This document shows positions 2,031-22,468 of a stretch of DNA of 23,689 nt, piece by piece. The stretch is taken from positions 1-23,689 of IMG/VR virus record IMGVR_UViG_2698536618_000024; one strand, written 5' to 3'. The notes beneath the pieces are model-generated. The model made no database searches. It worked only from the letters and a program-made list of their open reading frames with translations, and was not told the origin of the DNA. A program made the translations under genes and the position numbers. This stretch comes from a virus (taxonomy: Duplodnaviria > Heunggongvirae > Uroviricota > Caudoviricetes). Numbering within the stretch: the stretch's first letter is position 1; each line of letters starts with the position of its first letter.

Positions 2031-2105
2031 GGGTCAGTCGTATAAAGGTCATTACGGAAGGCTGTTAACCTTCTTATCGTGGTTCGAGTCCACGCTGTCC
2101 CGCCA
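2031..2105 (+). tRNA. tRNA-Asn(GUU)-like gene, possibly degenerate
   Basis: Hand-folded cloverleaf: anticodon stem GAAGG/CCTTC, loop CTGTTAA (anticodon GTT), T-arm CGTGG-TTCGAGT-CCACG, discriminator G plus encoded CCA; acceptor stem has one U-U mismatch (4:69) and D-stem only 3 bp. Confidence 0.5.
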
Positions 2106-2110
2106 AATAT

Positions 2111-2186
2111 GCTGGTTTAGCTCCAATGGTAGAGCGGTCGCCTTGTAAGCGAATGGGTAGCGGTTCAAGTCCGTTAACCAGCACCA
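2111..2186 (+). tRNA. tRNA-Thr(UGU)-like gene
   Basis: Hand-folded cloverleaf: perfect 7-bp acceptor GCTGGTT/AACCAGC, D-arm GCTC-CAATGGTA-GAGC, anticodon loop CTTGTAA (anticodon TGT), T-arm AGCGG-TTCAAGT-CCGTT, discriminator A, encoded CCA; acceptor ends resemble recalled E. coli tRNA-Thr. Confidence 0.6.
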
Positions 2187-4141: not shown

Positions 4142-4384
4142 ATGGCAGAGATTATTCCCATGACTGAAGAACAGAAATTCCAGTTAGAGATTTACAAGCT
4201 GGTCATGAACCAGAACGCAGCCGCAGAGGAAGCATTTCAGTTCATTGGCACTGACGAACTGAAGCTTGAGCTATTCAAAATTCACTTCCAGTCAGGTGGT
4301 GCTAATTCGGATATCACGATCCGCACATTCGAAGCGGTGCGTAAATCGAAGGAAGCGTTAGACCTGTTTACTACCGGAGCATGA
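4142..4384 (+). CDS. Hypothetical small acidic protein (80 aa) upstream of terminase
   Basis: Clean ORF with GGAG-type RBS context, protein-like helical composition; same position and size as the small orf80 that I recall preceding gene 3 in P22; no function recognised. Confidence 0.55.
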   Translation: MAEIIPMTEEQKFQLEIYKLVMNQNAAAEEAFQFIGTDELKLELFKIHFQSGGANSDITIRTFEAVRKSKEALDLFTTGA

Positions 4385-13827: not shown

Positions 13828-14282
13828 TGATTCAGTTCAAACCAACGCGAAACATCGACCTGATCGAAGCAGTCGGAAATCACCCTGACATTATTGCCGG
13901 GAGCAACAACGGTGATGGATACGATTACAAGCCTGAATGCCGTTACTTTGAGGTGAACGTGCACGGTCAGTTTGGCGGCATTGTTTACTATCAGGAGATT
14001 CAGCCGCTGACATTCGATTGCCACGCCATGTACCTGCCAGAGATTCGCGGCTTCAGCAAGGAAATCGGGCTGTCGTTCTGGAGATACATTCTGACTAACA
14101 CCACCGTTCAGTGCGTCACATCGTTCGCTGCACGCAAATTCCGTCACGGGCAGATGTACTGCGCAATGATTGGCCTTAAGCGTGTAGGAACCATCAAGAA
14201 ATACTTCAAAGGCGTGGATGACGTGACATTTTACAGTGCTACACGCGAAGAACTAATCGACTTCCTGAATCACGGGAGATAG
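13827..14282 (+). CDS. P22 gp14-like protein
   Basis: 151 aa ORF in the gp14 position between tail needle and ejection proteins, coupled by overlapping TAATG. Confidence 0.7.
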   Translation: MIQFKPTRNIDLIEAVGNHPDIIAGSNNGDGYDYKPECRYFEVNVHGQFGGIVYYQEIQPLTFDCHAMYLPEIRGFSKEIGLSFWRYILTNTTVQCVTSFAARKFRHGQMYCAMIGLKRVGTIKKYFKGVDDVTFYSATREELIDFLNHGR

Positions 14283-14987: not shown

Positions 14988-16403
14988 ATGGCTACGTGGC
15001 AACAGGGTATTAATTCTGGTGGGTTTCTTGCTGGCATCGGTGCGCAAAATGAGAATGCGCCAAAGGCAAGCGACATTAACGCAACGCTTGGTCTGATCCG
15101 CGAAAACAATGAACTGGCTCGATCAGGCGCAAATAACGTTGGTCTGACCGCGTTACGTGGTCTGGCTGGAGTTGCTGATATTTATAAGCAGGAACAGCAA
15201 CAGAAAGCTATTAGTGCGTTCAATAAGGTTCACGCTGATGCATGGGCTTCTGGTGATCCATCGGGACTATTTAAGTTTGCCCAGGAAAATCCAGCGTTTG
15301 TTGCACAGGCACAACAGGCGTTTTCCGGTCTTAATGAGCAGCAACGCAACGATATGGGCGATTTAGCCATGAGGGCTAACGTCGCTCTTTCTCAGGGACC
15401 GGAAGCCTACAGTAAATTCATTACTGACAACAAGGACAGGTTAAATCGTGTGGGTGCGAATGCTGACTGGATGATTCAGACAGGTATTCAGAATCCAGAG
15501 CAGCTATCACACATGCTGACTACTATGTCTCTCGGTGCGCTTGGACCAGAAAAGGCGTTTGCTGTTCAGGATAAGATGGCTGGTCGTGAAATTGACCGAG
15601 GCAGGCTGGCAGAGACAATCCGCAGCAATCAGGCTGGCGAGGCACTTCAGGCGAGAGGGCAAAACCTTTCCTATCAGTCAGCAATGACTGGGCACAATAT
15701 CGCAGCACAACGCTTGGCTCTGGATCAGCAAGAGTTCGGGTTTAAGATGCAGCAAGCGCAGGAAAAGGCTCAGCAGTTGATTAGCGAAGCACCTAAGCTG
15801 TCAGTAAACATGGAAAAAGGCATCGAGACGGCTGTAAACAATGCCACAGCATCATCAAACTCAGCCAATTCTATGAGTGCACTTGCTCAACAGTTCAGAG
15901 CAGAAAAACCAACGACAGGTTTGTTCGGTAACGCACAGAACATGTTCGCAAAACTTACCGGAAGCGATACGACATTGCGTGATTTGCGCATTCGCCAAAA
16001 TGCCCTTGTTAACAGTCAGGTTCTTAAATTCCTACCTCCCGGCCCAGCAACGGATAAAGACGTTGAGATCGTTCGACAGGGTGCGCCAACTGACATGGAT
16101 AACCCTGAGACGGTCGCAAGATGGCTTGATGCAATGGCAAACCTTGAGCGACGAAACGCGCAGTTTAATGAGTTTAAAGCCGAGTGGATGAGCGCGAATG
16201 GCAACCCTGGACAATCGCGTAATGGCGGTCAGATATTGGGGTTGGATGTTAAAAAAGGTGAATCATTGGGGAGTGCCGTTAAGCGGTATATGTCAATGAA
16301 TACTGACGCAGCGCCAGCACAAGATTCGACACCTTCAGGTGAACCACGGAATCAGGTTGGATCATATACCTCAAAATCAGGCATTCAATTTACGGTGGAA
16401 TGA
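14988..16403 (+). CDS. Ejection protein, P22 gp20-like
   Basis: 471 aa, [19 protein letters not shown]-terminus, same size and position as P22 gp20. Confidence 0.9.
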
Positions 16404-18241
16404 TGAAAGTAACTGCAAACGGTAAGACATTTACCTTTCCTGATGGTACGAGCACCGAAGATATTGGAACCGCCATTGATGAGTATTTTGCTGGTCAGGC
16501 TGTTCAGCAACAAACAGTTAATCAGGACAATAATGCACCAACACGGGAAGAACCATCATTGATGCAACAAGCTGGCGATTGGATCACTGGTGGTCAAAGT
16601 GCAGGGCAAATTGCAGAACAGGCTGGTCGTGGTCTGGTAAACATACCATTTGACGTATTGCAGGGTGGCGCAAGTCTGATTAATGCAATCAGTCAGGGGC
16701 TTGGTGGGCCAAAAGTTTTGGATGATGTTTATCGTCCAGTAGACAAACCGACAGACCCATACGCACAAGCCGGTGAAACAATTGGTGGGTATTTAGTTCC
16801 AGGAGTTGGAACGGCAGGAAGCATGGCTATTGGCTCACTGGCAGAGGCCGCAAATCAGAAAGGCGATTTCGCACAAAATGCAGCTAAAAATGCCGGAGTT
16901 AACCTTGCCGCTCAGGGTGTTCTTTCCGCAGCAGCAAAGGGAATAGGGCGTGGAATAACGGCTATAAAAGGTGATATTGCGCCAGAAGTGGCGAAGAAAA
17001 TTGCCACATCAGAATCGATGGGCGTGACACCAATGACATCTGATGTTATCCCGCCGAAAAATGCTTTCACTCGCGGCCTTACTCAGGATGCCGAGGGGGC
17101 TTTGCTCGGGACGGGCTCAAAGCGAGCAGAGCAATATGCAACGCGTAGTAAGCTGGTAAGCAATTATTTTGACCGTTTTGGTGAGTACAACCCTGATGAT
17201 GTGGTGAAATCTCTGACCACCACGTTAAGGGGGCGGAAGGATGCTGCTGGCGCTGTTATCAATGACGTCACCAATAAAATGGGTAATGCCGCAGTTGATA
17301 CCACAAATACCATGAATGCTCTGAATACAGCGATCGCAAGACAGGAACGACTTGGGACGTCTGCCAATCAAAGCCTGCTTACATCCTTGCGTAACCTGCG
17401 TGAAGAATTAGCAAACCCTGCAACTGATTTGGATGTTACGTTTGATCTCTTGCGTCAGCACAGAACAGCATTTAGATCTAATGTTCAGGGAGATGCTATG
17501 GTCTTCCCCAACCAGGCAAAAGCAGCTACCAATATGGTAGAGAATGCAATGTCAAAAGACCTTCGTAACGCAGTTGCTAAAAACCTCGGTGCATCAGACG
17601 CAGCAAAATACCTTAAAGCAAATTCCGATTATGCAAACGTTTATAATAAGGTGCTTAATAAAAACATTGCCAACAAGCTCAACAAGGCAAGCAGTGAAGC
17701 CAGTCCTGAACTTATAAATACCGTTGTATTAAGCAGAAAACCATCTGACGTGAAACGAATCTGGAGCGCATTGGATGATAAAGGGAAAGATGCTATGCGT
17801 GCAGCTTACGTCAGCAAAATAGCGGAAAAGGCCGGTGACTCTCCAGCCAAGTTCATCACTGAAGTTAATAAGCTGAAATCTCAGTCAGGCGGTGAAATTT
17901 ACAACACTATTTTTTCTGGAAAGCACATGAAAGAGCTTGATGCTCTTCATGAAGTTCTACAGCAAACAGCAAGGTCAGACACCGCAAATGTAGTAACTCA
18001 GACGGGGCAATCGCAAGCCAACAGGATAAGGACGATTGGCGCAACTGCGACTCTTGGTGTATCAATGGGGCTTGAGGCTGGTTTCGGTGCAATCATGCGC
18101 TTGTATGAGTCCAAAGCAGCAAGGAATGCTCTCTTACGTTTGGCAAACACCAAAGCAGGAACACCAGCCTATGAAAGAGCGCTAAATAATGCTGCAAATG
18201 CCGTCAGGCCGCTGTTTGCTACTGAGGCAACACAGCAGTAA
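16400..18241 (+). CDS. Ejection protein, P22 gp16-like
   Basis: 613 aa; N-terminus [32 protein letters not shown] matches recalled P22 gp16. Confidence 0.9.
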
Positions 18242-18265: not shown

Positions 18266-18655
18266 CTAACATTTTCTTTTTACTTTCCCAACAAAAGCTT
18301 TGGTTGAATCCATATTTCCATAACCGGAAATGGTTTTTGACATTAAAACTGTTCCAGTAGGATGTATTACCCATGAGTCGATAACGCGTTGAGTTTCGCC
18401 ATTCGCGCCGATTCCTATGATGGAGTTTTTAGACAATGCTTTGTAAGCCATGCCGCCCGCATCTGTCCCAGAATATGTGATGCTGGCATCTTCACCGCTT
18501 GTCTTAATGATGAATGTTCCACTAAAACCATCTTCTTCCGGATGGAAATTATTTCGTTCTGAATAGCTTATTCCGCGCATATCTCCAACGACCCAGCACT
18601 CTGCTGTAGCCCCAAAAGATATGAATAAGAACATAGCAGCAAGAAATTGCTTCAC
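18266..18655 (-). CDS. Hypothetical secreted/periplasmic protein (about 129 aa with Sec signal peptide)
   Basis: Start reassigned to GTG at 18655 (minus strand): AAGGAGG lies 5 nt upstream and the product begins MKQFLAAMFLFISFGATA/ECW, a classic n-h-c signal peptide with AXA site; the ORF-track extension to 18871 is antisense to the neighbouring plus gene and not protein-like. Confidence 0.55.
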   Translation of the reverse strand: MKQFLAAMFLFISFGATAECWVVGDMRGISYSERNNFHPEEDGFSGTFIIKTSGEDASITYSGTDAGGMAYKALSKNSIIGIGANGETQRVIDSWVIHPTGTVLMSKTISGYGNMDSTKAFVGKVKRKC

Positions 18656-18685
18656 ACCAACCTCCTTAGTTTTGCGCAGGATACC

Positions 18686-19051
18686 ATGAAAAAAGTTAAC
18701 ATTGGAAACGTACCAAAAATGCTCGTTCCGCTCTTTGAGAGCGGTACAATTGTGTTTTGCAGAGACTTTCCAGAATGGCAACGCCTGCATCAAAAACTTG
18801 GCGTGGACGTGCAGGACTCGGATGCCAACGGAGCGTCTCATACAATGAGCAGCGAGAATGGTGTTTTGCATGTGATAGGTGTGTTCAATGGCAAACTATC
18901 TACTATTGCCCATGAGTGCGCTCACATGGCATTCGATATCTGCTCAAGGGTCGGCGTTGATGTTGAACCAGGAAGAGCCAACGAGACTTACTGCTACTTA
19001 ATGAGCAGGCTTGTTGAGTTCTGCGAGCGACATATCAAAAAGCCGGAGTGA
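18686..19051 (+). CDS. Hypothetical protein with HEXXH zinc-binding-type motif (about 121 aa)
   Basis: Translation contains STIAHECAHMAFD (HEXXH at nt 18910-18924) in a hydrophobic context typical of zincin active-site helices; start at ATG 18686 to avoid overlap with the divergent secreted-protein gene; family not identified. Confidence 0.5.
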   Translation: MKKVNIGNVPKMLVPLFESGTIVFCRDFPEWQRLHQKLGVDVQDSDANGASHTMSSENGVLHVIGVFNGKLSTIAHECAHMAFDICSRVGVDVEPGRANETYCYLMSRLVEFCERHIKKPE

Positions 19052-19058
19052 ACCGGCT
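19036..19058 (-). terminator. Intrinsic terminator for the minus-strand small gene, overlapping the 3' end of the HEXXH gene
   Basis: AGCCGG-AGTGAA-CCGGCT hairpin (19041-19058); the A-run 19036-19040 on the plus strand gives a U-run after the stem on the minus strand. Confidence 0.4.
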
Positions 19059-19064
19059 TGATTA

Positions 19065-19244
19065 TTACTTTTTGCTGTCTGGAGTTCGCTTATCTAATAC
19101 CCAGCCATGACCTGGCTTTGTTGTTGGTGGAAGTCTTTCGTTGTCCTTGACGGTGGCAAAATTATCTTTCTTACCGCCGCGTGGGCCAACTTCTTGGTAT
19201 ATTCCGCCGTTTTTTCCTGTGTTTTCACCTGGTTTTTTCGCCAT
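19065..19244 (-). CDS. Hypothetical small protein (59 aa), Gly/Lys/Pro-rich
   Basis: MAKKPGENTGKNGGIYQEVGPRGGKKDNFATVKDNERLPPTTKPGHGWVLDKRTPDSKK; GAGG RBS 7 nt upstream of ATG 19244; own terminator downstream; pattern loosely resembles small YjzC-like proteins as I recall them (unverified). Confidence 0.5.
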   Translation of the reverse strand: MAKKPGENTGKNGGIYQEVGPRGGKKDNFATVKDNERLPPTTKPGHGWVLDKRTPDSKK

Positions 19245-19335
19245 GATATACCTCAACATACACCCGTTATTGGGCGATTAAATATTGATCTCATTTTATA
19301 AGTAGTCAATATGGCCCAGGTAAATGCAAAAATTA

Positions 19336-19358
19336 ACCCACCGTCAGGTGGTTTTTTT
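19336..19358 (+). terminator. Rho-independent terminator (first of two in tandem upstream of tailspike)
   Basis: CCACC-GTCA-GGTGG (19338-19351) followed by TTTTTTT 19352-19358. Confidence 0.5.
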
Positions 19359-19409
19359 GTACAAATCCTTCAGCCAGTACATAACTACTGACAGATAACC
19401 AACGCAACG

Positions 19410-19433
19410 ACCCAGCTTCGGCTGGGTTTTTTT
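19410..19433 (+). terminator. Rho-independent terminator (second of tandem pair)
   Basis: ACCCAGC-TTCG-GCTGGGT (19410-19427), 7-bp stem with tetraloop, then TTTTTT 19428-19433. Confidence 0.6.
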
Positions 19434-19491
19434 ATGCCCAAAATTCACCGTGGCCACGCTGCGGCGATTCATTGTATCTGGAGCAAATTAA

Positions 19492-21288
19492 ATGACAGAC
19501 ATTACAGCCAATGTGATCGTATCGATGCCTTCGCAACTTTTCACTATGGCGCGTTCTTTTAAAGCTGTAGCCAATGGCAAAATTTATATCGGTCAGGTTG
19601 ACACTGACCCGGTAAATCCTGAAAACCAGATCCCTGTATATCTGGAACGAGAAGATGGCTCTCATGTTCAGGTGGCGCAGCCAATAGTTATCAACGCTGC
19701 TGGATATCCGGTATATAACGGGCAGATCGCCAAGTTCGCAACTGTACAGAATCACTCCATGGCTGTATATGATGCGTATGGCGCACAACAATTCTATTAT
19801 CCTGATCTACTGAAATATTCTCCAGACCAGTTAAGGGCTGAGCTTTCTGGCCCTGATGGCGCATCTCTGGTTGGTTATGGAGGCACAACCGTAAAGATTG
19901 AGCTGGAGATCTTGAAAGCTACACATGATTCATTAATTGATAAAACAGGATTTAACGCTATTGGCCGCTTTCTCAATCTTTCAGAGCTTCGCTCCTGTGT
20001 TCCAGAGGAGGCAGGGCAGATTGTATACGTAGCATCAGCAGCTAGCACTACACATGCTGAAAACCACCTTGGTGGCGGCTTTTTCGAGTCTGTTGATAAC
20101 ATTCAGGCGTGGGCTGACGATGGTGGAATTGTAATCAAGCCAGAAACTGGAACGATGGTATGGAGACGAATTAATTTTACCACTTACGACATGCAATTTT
20201 GGGGGGTGAAACCTGACGGAGTCACAGATAACGCAACAGCTATAACTCTTGCAACTAACTTTGCCCGCTCAAACAAATGCATTCTAGAGGCTCCTGCTGG
20301 AAACATAAATACATCAAAAACAATCCCAATTTATGACAATATGGGAATTAGAGGACAGGGAAAGGCTGAAGCGACAGTTTTTTATAAAACAACAAATGAC
20401 AAAATAGATCTCACAAAAAATGGAGAAGTAATTCTTCAGGTGGATGCATTATGTGCTTTTATACCAAAGCAATGGGATCTAACAGATAACTCAATGAGTT
20501 CATTTTGTGTTAACGGTAGAGTTGAAAACTGCATGTTTAGAAGGCTTGGCTTAACACAAGAAAACGTAGATTCTTATAGAAATTATTACGGACTGTTTTT
20601 AGGAAAATCAGCAGCACCAGTTATCAGACAGTCAATTTTTGAATGTGCTTATATCGGATGCTTCTCTTATGTGCCGTTCTCTGGCGTAATGGAAATGGTC
20701 GGTTTCCCACAATATCCAGGTAAAGGATATGCTGGAGTTTTATTTGAAGATTTTAGGGATGGTCAAATAAAAGTAATAGGCACTTCTATGGATATGCGCC
20801 TTGTTCAGGTTAACGGTTACCAGTTGTCATTTAGAATGTCAGGAATGCAATATACCACCATGACCAATTGTACTGCTGAAAACTGCACGCCAATGGATGG
20901 GGAGTCAATTTGCTATGCATTTGATTTTGTAAATCCGTATTGCATTGTCATGAATACTTGTGCAACAGAATTTGTTAAGGGTGGGCAACTTCGTGTTAGC
21001 GTTCAGGGAAACCCATCATTCAGACCATCTATTATTGTCAATGGCTTTCTGCCAATTGAACAACAAAGCCCGGTAGTGCAAACACCTATAATAGATATTG
21101 ATAATGGTGGCGTAGTTGAAATGAGTGTCATATTAAATGGTGGAGATTGGGCTATAAATCCATCTGCTGCAAATTTAACCGCACCAAGAGCAAGCGGAAA
21201 TGGGTTGAAAGCAAGGTTAATAGGTGTAAACGGGTCGCCTGTTTCGATCTGGAGCGTGTCTTCTGGCGCAGATGTGAAGGAGTTCTAA
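19492..21288 (+). CDS. Tailspike protein: conserved P22-type N-terminal head-binding domain plus divergent receptor-binding domain
   Basis: First ~115 aa ([11 protein letters not shown]...[58 protein letters not shown]) match the recalled P22 gp9 N-terminal domain; remainder unlike P22 and markedly lower in GC by eye. Confidence 0.9.
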
Positions 21289-21358: not shown

Positions 21359-22468
21359 ATGAATAATAAAGGCAATATAATTCAAAGTCTTACATCGTTG
21401 AGAATGTTTGCAGCCCTTGGTGTTTTCGTTAGTCACCTTGGGTTATTATCTCAATCATCTATTGGCATGTTTAATACTGCGGCAAAGTATTTTTTTAACG
21501 GTTACATAGGTGTAACGTTTTTCTACATTCTTTCAGGTTTCATTATAAACTATAGCTTCACAAATCATATAAAAAAAGAGAGATTTAGCAATAAAGATTT
21601 TATTGTATACAGGATTGCAAGAATATTCCCTGTGCATATAGTGGCGCTTATTTGTTTTATTTTAATATTTATGCATGGTAAGGGTATTGATGGTATTAAT
21701 AATGGAGTGCTTATTTCAAATATATTATTACTACAATCATTTATTCCATTACAGGATTATTACTTTTCCTTTAATTCCGTTTCATGGAGCATCTCATGTG
21801 AGATGTTTTTCTACGTTGCATTTTGCTTATTAACAAGGCTAAAGACAAAGCATTTAACTTGTGTGCTGTTATTTGTGCTTGCGATTAATTTTTATTATTT
21901 AATTAATCCACCATCAGCTATATCACAGCATTGGTTGTTTTATATAAATCCATCATTTAGAATTGGCGATTTCATTATAGGAATGCTGATCTGTAGGGTG
22001 TTTATTAATAGTGATGTAAAAATCAACTATACTGTTTGCAGTATACTTGAGATCGCATCGGTGTTGTCATTGTTTTTGACAATATATGTAGCAACAAACT
22101 ATATCACATATATGAACATAAAATATGATGTTCTATATATCCCTTGCATGGCGTTTATAGTTATTGCATTTGCTTTTAATGGTGGCGTCTTATCTAAGAT
22201 ACTTAAAAATAGATTTATGGTTTTGCTTGGTGAGGCCTCTTTCTCATTTTACATTTTCCATTGGATGATAATACAGGTAATAACTAAGATATTAAACCCT
22301 GACACTGATAATTTGTATGAGATGTTAATGTATATAGCATTTTCTTTATTGGTTTCTATTATTGTATCAATAATCTCATTCAAGGTTATAGAAGTGCCTT
22401 CAAATAAAATAATAAGAGGTTATTGGAGAAAGTTTAGAGGTGATAAATTAACTGCGAAGTGTAGTTAG
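21359..22468 (+). CDS. Integral-membrane acyltransferase family 3 protein; candidate O-antigen acetyltransferase (Oac-like serotype-conversion gene)
   Basis: 369 aa, hydrophobic multi-pass throughout, N-terminal region SLRMFAALGVFVSHLG typical of acyltransferase-3 proteins, strongly AT-rich; sits between tailspike and int, the position I recall for oac in Sf6 and gtrABC in P22. Confidence 0.75.
   Translation: MNNKGNIIQSLTSLRMFAALGVFVSHLGLLSQSSIGMFNTAAKYFFNGYIGVTFFYILSGFIINYSFTNHIKKERFSNKDFIVYRIARIFPVHIVALICFILIFMHGKGIDGINNGVLISNILLLQSFIPLQDYYFSFNSVSWSISCEMFFYVAFCLLTRLKTKHLTCVLLFVLAINFYYLINPPSAISQHWLFYINPSFRIGDFIIGMLICRVFINSDVKINYTVCSILEIASVLSLFLTIYVATNYITYMNIKYDVLYIPCMAFIVIAFAFNGGVLSKILKNRFMVLLGEASFSFYIFHWMIIQVITKILNPDTDNLYEMLMYIAFSLLVSIIVSIISFKVIEVPSNKIIRGYWRKFRGDKLTAKCS

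Follow-up and report, generated by a model that had tools for sequence, protein, structure and literature searches.

P22 and HK620 are model phages, yet one of their small genes, hkcC, has remained one of unknown function since its naming, being counted, with its neighbor orf59a, among the ant moron's 'genes of unknown function' (PMC2629481). What its product might do is the question raised by the same gene in the virus record IMGVR_UViG_2698536618_000024 (IMG/VR), of which positions 1 to 23,689 were analyzed; this whole stretch of 23,689 nucleotides (nt), called the window below, is the late half of a P22-like (Sf6/HK620-type) prophage. The reading preferred here, with a probability of about 0.55, is that HkcC would be a soluble, stand-alone, minimal metallopeptidase of the gluzincin type, an accessory protein that acts on a specific protein target, as suggested by residue conservation and structural models. 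Taken by itself, the assignment to the class of gluzincin-type metallopeptidases appears likely on the same grounds, and metal binding, catalysis, the timing of expression and the target of HkcC are what we infer in the following. The family of HkcC is new and uncurated, but it belongs to a known kind of enzyme and does not represent a new type of system. Neither the zincin assignment nor the extent of the family was found in any of the databases or literature searched, a literature search on hkcC, the ant moron and related phage metalloproteases with anti-defense roles returned no functional study, and hkcC is not mentioned in a 2024 study of SieA (PMC10883804).

hkcC and the residues kept among its relatives

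hkcC is a real, translated gene under purifying selection. Among 37 distinct alleles from 80 IMG/VR loci, the variant sites comprise 29 synonymous and four non-synonymous ones, with 29 of the 33 at the third codon position, and the initiator methionine aligns with the N-terminus in 130 of 136 homologs. The open reading frame (ORF) from which an earlier note, made from the sequence alone, had started is thus real, its ATG and frame being supported by homolog N-termini and by the synonymous bias. A longer version beginning at a TTG (18647) was rejected as a mechanical artifact. So was a 201-amino-acid (aa) antisense ORF (18266-18871, minus strand) that covers the initial 186 nt of hkcC; it merely prolongs a neighboring 129-aa gene mechanically to a point upstream of its real GTG. 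The product encoded in the window is 100% identical to HkcC of coliphage HK620 and to the product of the ORF between sieA and orf59a in Salmonella phage P22, which several P22 records leave unannotated; the original P22 sequence (AF217253) is only 72% identical at the hkcC ORF. The identical protein also occurs in many prophages, and hkcC is present in 131 of 5426 complete Escherichia coli genomes, with the RefSeq label 'hypothetical protein'. Signal peptide and transmembrane or other hydrophobic segments are absent from HkcC, hence the protein should be cytoplasmic.

The HEXXH motif of HkcC would mean little on its own, as a lone HEXXH is about what chance provides (0.55 expected in the window, and one found when the open segments of all six frames are counted; 0.004 expected per 121 aa), and its significance derives from its invariance among relatives. 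In 136 divergent relatives, which are 25-45% identical to HkcC, His76 is kept in 136/136 and Glu77, His80 and Glu100 in 135/136 each, and HEXXH is also invariant in a second alignment (A2); judged by this conservation, the motif is functional and not a chance occurrence. In zincins the Glu of the motif is the general base and not a ligand, so that the invariance of Glu77 would speak for catalysis rather than for a structural metal site. Further conserved positions are Tyr104 (128/136), Cys103 (112/136) and Asn99 (98/136, 72%), the segment formed by Gly65 (84%), Val66 (82%), Phe67 (90%) and Asp/Asn68 (85%), and, likewise strongly, Gly49 and Gly90. It had been proposed in the earlier note that downstream Glu residues could supply a third zinc ligand, which is borne out for Glu100, conserved and a putative ligand, but not for Glu94, which is not conserved. 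Cys78 and Cys86 are not conserved among relatives, which rules out a Cys/His zinc finger formed through them, and the 136-relative alignment contains no conserved His downstream of His80 and no Cys cluster. The only full-length relative in which the catalytic Glu is replaced is P0136 (HKAAH), which may be an inactive variant or reflect a sequencing error.

An exhaustive profile search extends the family to 477 clusters (50% identity) with E <= 1e-3, nearly all of them free-standing proteins of 105-140 aa, and a search with a degenerate DNA pattern returned 120 related loci, all of which encode true family members. The family ranges over P22-like, lambdoid, siphovirus-like and N4-like phages.

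Predicted fold and family assignment

AlphaFold2 (AF2) models built with 20 and 114 sequences have the same topology, with predicted local distance difference test (pLDDT) values of 88 and 94 and predicted template modeling (pTM) scores of 0.83 and 0.87, respectively. The predicted order of strands (E) and helices (H) is E11-13, E21-25, H28-37, E49-56, E59-66, H71-88, which contains HEXXH, and H100-116, which starts at Glu100, and pLDDT is 95-98 around HEXXH in helix 71-88. The zincin core is composed of a beta sheet, an N-terminal helix, a helix with HEXXH and a helix with Glu (Iyer et al., 2017; PMC5512222), and the order predicted for HkcC agrees with it at the level of topology, including an edge strand directly before the HEXXH helix. 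The segment Gly65-Val-Phe-Asn-Gly69 lies at the place expected for the zincin substrate-binding edge strand and may have that role, as conservation and models suggest. Inspection of an AlphaFold model had been recommended in the earlier note, and in both AF2 models HEXXH is within helix 71-88 and the Glu at the start of the next helix; with HEXXH in a confident helix, an invariant Glu100 and an invariant Glu77, the candidate zinc metallopeptidase of that note is supported as a prediction.

The gluzincin assignment is suggested by the spacing HExxH-x19-(N)E, which is that of thermolysin, Glu100 standing exactly 20 residues after His80. phmmer pairs HECAH...GRANETYCY of HkcC with HELTH...GALNEAISD of neutral protease, a match that is suggestive and non-significant (E = 0.1). 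In the mechanism proposed on this basis, His76 and His80, on one face of helix 71-88, and Glu100, at the start of helix 100-116, would hold Zn2+, Glu77 would activate a water molecule, Tyr104, one turn past Glu100, would stand at the place of thermolysin Asp170, and an extended peptide substrate would bind along the strand that ends in GVF(D/N)G. HkcC can be taken as the type member of this large, uncurated set of minimal zinc-protease-like proteins, and its tetrad His76/Glu77/His80/Glu100 offers a hypothesis that can be tested by mutation.

PHROG 1365 is the only full-length match of HkcC (E = 1.4e-39, residues 1-121 on positions 3-120 of 127); its function is not assigned, and all 114 scanned relatives fall into it. 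The weak Pfam matches of these 114 members (E <= 0.1) are SprT-like in 19 cases, DUF5700 in two and DUF4344, DA1-like, M48 and M50B in one each; weak lantibiotic profile matches of HkcC were discarded as motif noise. Foldseek against viral models gave 24 matches with E <= 1e-3, most of them unnamed, and among the matches listed (to E = 2.1e-3) the TM-score reaches 0.84 and four carry names, namely SprT-like (two), Metalloprotease and PolyVal metallopeptidase. In a second, word-indexed homolog search with the family profile, annotated relatives were not found. Matches of myroilysin and BMP1 in the Protein Data Bank (PDB) were set aside, as only TxxHExxH was covered.

Several results weigh against HkcC as a gluzincin-type accessory peptidase. 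In the models, Glu100 is the first residue of its helix and follows an 11-residue loop. HkcC matches no curated profile at threshold in Pfam, NCBIfam or PADLOC, Foldseek against the PDB gives nothing below E = 0.1, with SPRTN (6mdx) at E = 0.34 as the sole zincin among the matches listed, and PDB sequence searches with the protein, the 114-sequence profile and three distant members were empty or returned noise (E >= 0.02). At the level of the locus, no dedicated sigma-70 promoter was found for hkcC, and the gene 16-gene 9 interval of P22 is presumably dispensable for plaque formation, given that viable P22 deletions span it, so that any role of HkcC would be conditional.

Setting of the gene and what HkcC may act on

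The window begins with ninG, a phosphoesterase gene, a Q-type antiterminator gene and two tRNA genes, followed by the lysis genes, and continues with an Sf6-type small terminase gene, head, tail and ejection genes, a tailspike gene with a P22 head-binding domain, an acyltransferase gene and an integrase gene. Three small genes lie between gene 16 and the tailspike gene, the leftward 129-aa gene, the rightward hkcC and the leftward orf59a (Table 1). The immunity-region position ascribed to hkcC in the earlier note is correct by synteny, as this is the site of the ant moron between genes 16 and 9, and mnt, arc and ant are deleted in the window. Homology to P22 spans from 33 base pairs (bp) upstream of hkcC through orf59a and ends 31 bp into the 3' end of mnt, and beyond this mnt remnant the sequence tracks HK620 into the tailspike gene. 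Both hairpins of the immI remnant are terminator-like and correspond in the HK620 annotation to remnants of the mnt and ant terminators, and the promoter-like site of the immI remnant could drive orf59a. An Rfam search of the gene 16-gene 9 interval gave no RNA family.

Table 1. Coordinates of hkcC, its predicted motifs and other features of the window.
Feature	Position	Strand	Remarks
hkcC coding sequence	18686..19051	+	ATG start; 121 aa, 13.6 kDa, pI 6.3; PHROG 1365
Shine-Dalgarno AGGA	18678..18681	+	4 nt before the hkcC ATG
G65-V-F-N-G69	18878..18892	+	at the end of predicted strand 59-66; the active-site helix comes next
H76-E77-C78-A79-H80 (HEXXH)	18911..18925	+	inside helix 71-88; putative Zn ligands H76 and H80, putative general base E77
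N99-E100-T-Y-C103-Y104	18980..18997	+	start of helix 100-116; E100 (18983-18985) putative third Zn ligand; Y104 at i+4
PsieA-homologous region	18686..18716	-	P22-pbi annotation 13861-13891 maps to hkcC nt 1-31 (codons 1-10); reads leftward into the cassette gene
Hairpin AAGCCGG-N6-CCGGCTT	19040..19059	.	bidirectional, terminator-like; hkcC stop codon in the loop; tORF59A in the HK620 annotation
orf59a/HkcD	19065..19244	-	59 aa, Gly/Lys/Pro-rich; PHROG 3202; extendable to 19259; convergent partner of hkcC
129-aa cassette gene	18266..18655	-	GTG start after a perfect AAGGAGG; Sec-type signal peptide; PHROG 2651, no assigned function
Ejection gene 16	16400-18241		left border of the hkcC interval
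immI remnant	19260..19491	.	last 31 bp of mnt; hairpins 19338-19351 and 19409-19428; promoter-like site 19309-19281 (-)
Tailspike gene 9	19492-21288		right border of the hkcC interval
tRNA genes Asn-GTT and Thr-TGT	2031-2186	+	after the Q antiterminator gene, before the lysis genes
369-aa Acyl_transf_3 protein gene	21359-22468	+	between tailspike and integrase; probably an O-antigen-modifying lysogenic-conversion gene

The slot taken by the 129-aa gene, to the left of hkcC, is a swap site. It is occupied by the superinfection-exclusion gene sieA in P22 and by hkcB in HK620, and across 80 related loci it holds sieA in 12, hkcB in eight and the 129-aa secreted protein in 10 (the window being an additional case), with various other genes in the remaining loci. 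As sieA, hkcB and the 129-aa gene are all downstream of the same conserved PsieA-type region, this would be a swappable cassette site, possibly for exclusion genes. The putative PsieA promoter was placed within 85 bp upstream of sieA (PMC10883804), which puts it inside the 5' end of hkcC.

hkcC is in sense with the late operon, with the Q antiterminator gene upstream in the window, and its relatives are found repeatedly in late operons or in the N4-like early region. The conserved DNA block starts only 33 bp before the hkcC ATG, at a point within the ribosome-binding region of the cassette gene that diverges from hkcC. On the simplest view, hkcC would be expressed by Q-antiterminated late transcription, and from the late-operon sense between ejection and tailspike genes HkcC is most likely made late in lytic growth. 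It has been remarked that deletion of sieA ensures robust tailspike synthesis after induction (PMC10883804), which fits transcription passing through the gene 16-gene 9 interval.

The relatives occupy several other places. A paralogous clade of ~38-40% identity (epsilon34 gp70; Orf129 of phages L and ST64T) lies between the lysis cassette and dec/terS, as do mEp044 gene 72, an Enterobacter phage-plasmid gene and genes on several metagenomic contigs. The P22-like phages ST160, SE1Spa, ST-32, UAB_Phi20 and SW-70 carry two family copies each, one of the HkcC type and one of the epsilon34/L Orf129 type, which hints at different targets of the two paralogs. An obligatory link of the epsilon34-type paralog to its DUF2560 (hkbM-like) neighbor was rejected, as the window has such a gene (4142-4384) with no adjacent paralog. 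In the virulent N4-like Pseudomonas phage phCDa, the homolog is the first gene of a rightward block that diverges from the structural genes, and in Gamaleyavirus coliphages it is among small genes at the genome end; by synteny with N4, these sites would belong to the early region. Members encoded right upstream of the small terminase gene (P0073, P0082, P0150, P0173 and mEp044 gene 72, the last at L004 3501-4085) have C-terminal tails of 50-70 aa that are acidic and then Lys/Arg-rich, several of them ending in VPR(I/V)xx(F/Y)KR(G/W); HkcC has no such tail. Among the relatives seen, only P0114 and P0180 (L087 5001-5852) have an N-terminal extension, which is of ~165 aa and has no Pfam match, and their neighbors form a same-strand gene run that is also devoid of Pfam matches.

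Of 80 P22-like loci, 69 contain the pair of hkcC and orf59a. Counting the ant moron of P22-like phages, the pair occurs in five backbones, the other four being L088, the L175 type and the siphovirus-like prophages found in Klebsiella oxytoca and in Rosenbergiella. HkcC is 60-65% identical in K. oxytoca, Rosenbergiella and a third viral contig group, and 42% identical in another prophage. In Klebsiella and Rosenbergiella, the pair is flanked by the genes for the tail chaperone and the tape measure, and in the third contig group it comes after tail-chaperone-like genes. Orf59a, for which a weak YjzC-like match was obtained (E = 0.0017), has homologs of at least 55% identity in all of these settings, three of which retain the hairpin, including the distant L088 and L225. 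More distant clades of the family lack orf59a, and the pair may reflect functional coupling or only the co-transfer of one recombination block.

Seen in this setting, hkcC would be an accessory 'moron' gene outside the immunity circuit that moves with orf59a as a convergent two-gene module, and HkcC would probably cleave a single specific protein or a small number of them, whether from the host, a competing element or the phage, in a host-modulating or counter-defense capacity. That the role is indeed host-directed or one of counter-defense is a tentative part of this proposal, and we hold it to be possible rather than probable. If the target is a host defense protein, a proteolytic class would be added to phage counter-defense, and if not, hkcC would be an ordinary accessory gene. 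A bolder version, which we consider rather unlikely, is that hkcC and orf59a form a mobile module around an unrecognized miniature phage protease family that cuts a host defense protein or a prophage effector, possibly Orf59a, the protease being an early product in virulent N4-like phages and a late-operon product in temperate ones; if true, it would give phages a proteolytic counter-defense or a self-immunity switch.

A narrower proposal centers on Orf59a, with a late protease that removes or processes a lysogeny-phase Orf59a effector, or with Orf59a as the inhibitor of the protease. The conservation of the pair and of the shared hairpin at 42-65% HkcC identity in five backbones is consistent with such an enzyme and partner, as is the position of orf59a in P22, downstream of mnt and on the prophage-expressed strand. 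However, hkcC occurs with no detectable orf59a in 11 of 81 P22-like loci, the epsilon34-type, N4-type and most other clades have no orf59a neighbor, and simple co-transfer of one recombination block could account for the linkage, hence we regard this proposal as unlikely.

A SprT-like or other zincin fold was thought equally possible in the earlier note, and in its more specific form this would make HkcC a SprT/Wss1/Spartan-like DNA-dependent protease that removes DNA-bound or cross-linked proteins, for instance around packaging or after injection. Loosely, the resemblance holds: SprT-like is the commonest weak Pfam match (19/114 members, all sub-threshold, best E = 1e-4), SPRTN is the only solved zincin in the Foldseek list for the PDB, some viral structural neighbors are named SprT-like, and the long Lys/Arg-rich C-terminal tails of the subfamily just upstream of terS could bind DNA. 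It does not extend beyond the HEXXH helix, as the two members examined score 15.7 and 14.0 bits against a cut-off of 25.6 and match only positions 63-96 of the 108 in the profile, and the SprT profile check proposed in the earlier note turned out negative, with no Pfam match for HkcC itself and nothing found when the family profile was compared with E. coli SprT by hhalign (YggI; probability 4%). Moreover, the third conserved residue is a Glu, with no conserved third His and no zinc ribbon, and HkcC is mildly acidic and has no basic tail. A DNA-dependent protease of this type is therefore quite improbable.

Alternatively, HkcC could process a virion or ejection protein, or be packaged and injected so as to act early although made late. 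The gene adjoins ejection genes here and dec/terS or tail genes in relatives, the early position of the N4-like homologs would suit a protein required when infection begins, and polyvalent proteins contain zincin domains that are packaged or process themselves (PMC5512222). Against this, P22-like phages lacking hkcC assemble normally, the interval is dispensable, and HkcC has no recognizable capsid-targeting signal. To our knowledge, HkcC has also not been reported among the P22 virion proteins, and a virion-associated role is very unlikely.

It is also conceivable that HkcC is no enzyme, the DNA being non-coding and kept for PsieA and the terminator, or HEXXH forming only a structural metal site. 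The ORF often goes unannotated in P22 records, its first 31 nt overlap with PsieA and its stop codon with the terminator, and no profile matches above threshold, but the codon-position bias, hundreds of protein-level relatives at 25-45% identity, an invariant general-base Glu and the confident fold prediction speak against this explanation, which is highly improbable.

Finally, hkcC lies in the immI interval and yet not in the immunity circuit, which corrects a tempting misreading. The earlier note had offered as one hypothesis that HkcC is an ImmA/IrrE-type anti-repressor in place of Ant, and spelled out further, the protein would cleave a phage repressor (C2, Mnt or Arc) and so do the work of Ant in phages without ant. 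The HEXXH and Glu signature of zincins, a size like that of M78 domains, the absence of ant from both the window and HK620, one extra family member with a Peptidase_M78 match of E = 0.099 and 12.9 bits (cut-off 22) and two viral models named 'IrrE protein' (Foldseek E = 0.04-0.05, TM-score 0.27-0.44) would fit an anti-repressor, but we give it hardly any credence, as the identical protein stands beside ant, mnt and arc in P22 and the two genes hkcC and ant are together in 30 of 80 loci and so not mutually exclusive, a Pfam check against M78, also suggested in the earlier note, found no match for HkcC at E <= 1 or for any of the 114 members at E <= 0.1, the neighbors are a secreted cassette protein and orf59a with no adjacent XRE/cI-type repressor, the hallmark of ImmR-ImmA pairs, hkcC is oriented with the late operon, the paralogs adjoin terminase or tail genes, and relatives are encoded by strictly virulent N4-like phages, which do not lysogenize.

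Comparison with known zincins

The zincin-like metallopeptidase domains of polyvalent proteins from phages and plasmids, published as 12 clades and including the C-terminal domain of ArdC, share with HkcC the layout of the core, carriage by phages and a proposed role in conflicts with the host (PMC5512222), and one viral structural neighbor of HkcC is named 'PolyVal Metallopeptidase'. In contrast to these domains, HkcC is a free-standing protein of 121 aa and not a domain of a giant protein, although a few relatives have basic tails and two an N-terminal extension. The ImmA/IrrE proteins (PF06114, Peptidase_M78, COG2856) are likewise small zincins with HEXXH and Glu on mobile elements, whereas HkcC has neither a profile match to them nor a cognate repressor as neighbor, coexists with Ant, occurs in virulent phages and is encoded in late-operon sense.

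The SprT-like proteins (PF10263; SPRTN, Wss1) are akin to HkcC through the commonest weak profile match, SPRTN 6mdx and the names of viral structural neighbors, and they differ from it in that the putative third ligand of HkcC is a Glu instead of a His and that HkcC has no zinc ribbon and no DNA-binding region. Thermolysin-type gluzincins (MEROPS M4; HExxH...NExxSD) resemble HkcC in the pair of His on the active-site helix, in the Glu that follows at +20 on the subsequent helix, in the Asn before this Glu, present in 72% of HkcC relatives, with Glu100 aligned to thermolysin Glu166, and in a conserved polar residue at Glu+4 (Tyr104 in HkcC, Asp170 in thermolysin). However, HkcC has 121 aa compared to ~316 and lacks the C-terminal helical domain, the calcium sites and the propeptide, its sequence similarity to thermolysin is non-significant with no significant fold match, and it is intracellular and phage-encoded. 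The minigluzincins proabylysin and projannalysin are stand-alone archaeal zincins of ~100 aa, which consist of a sheet with a backing helix, an HEXXH helix and a Glu helix. Compared with their published structures, HkcC would be a stand-alone minimal catalytic core of about the same size.

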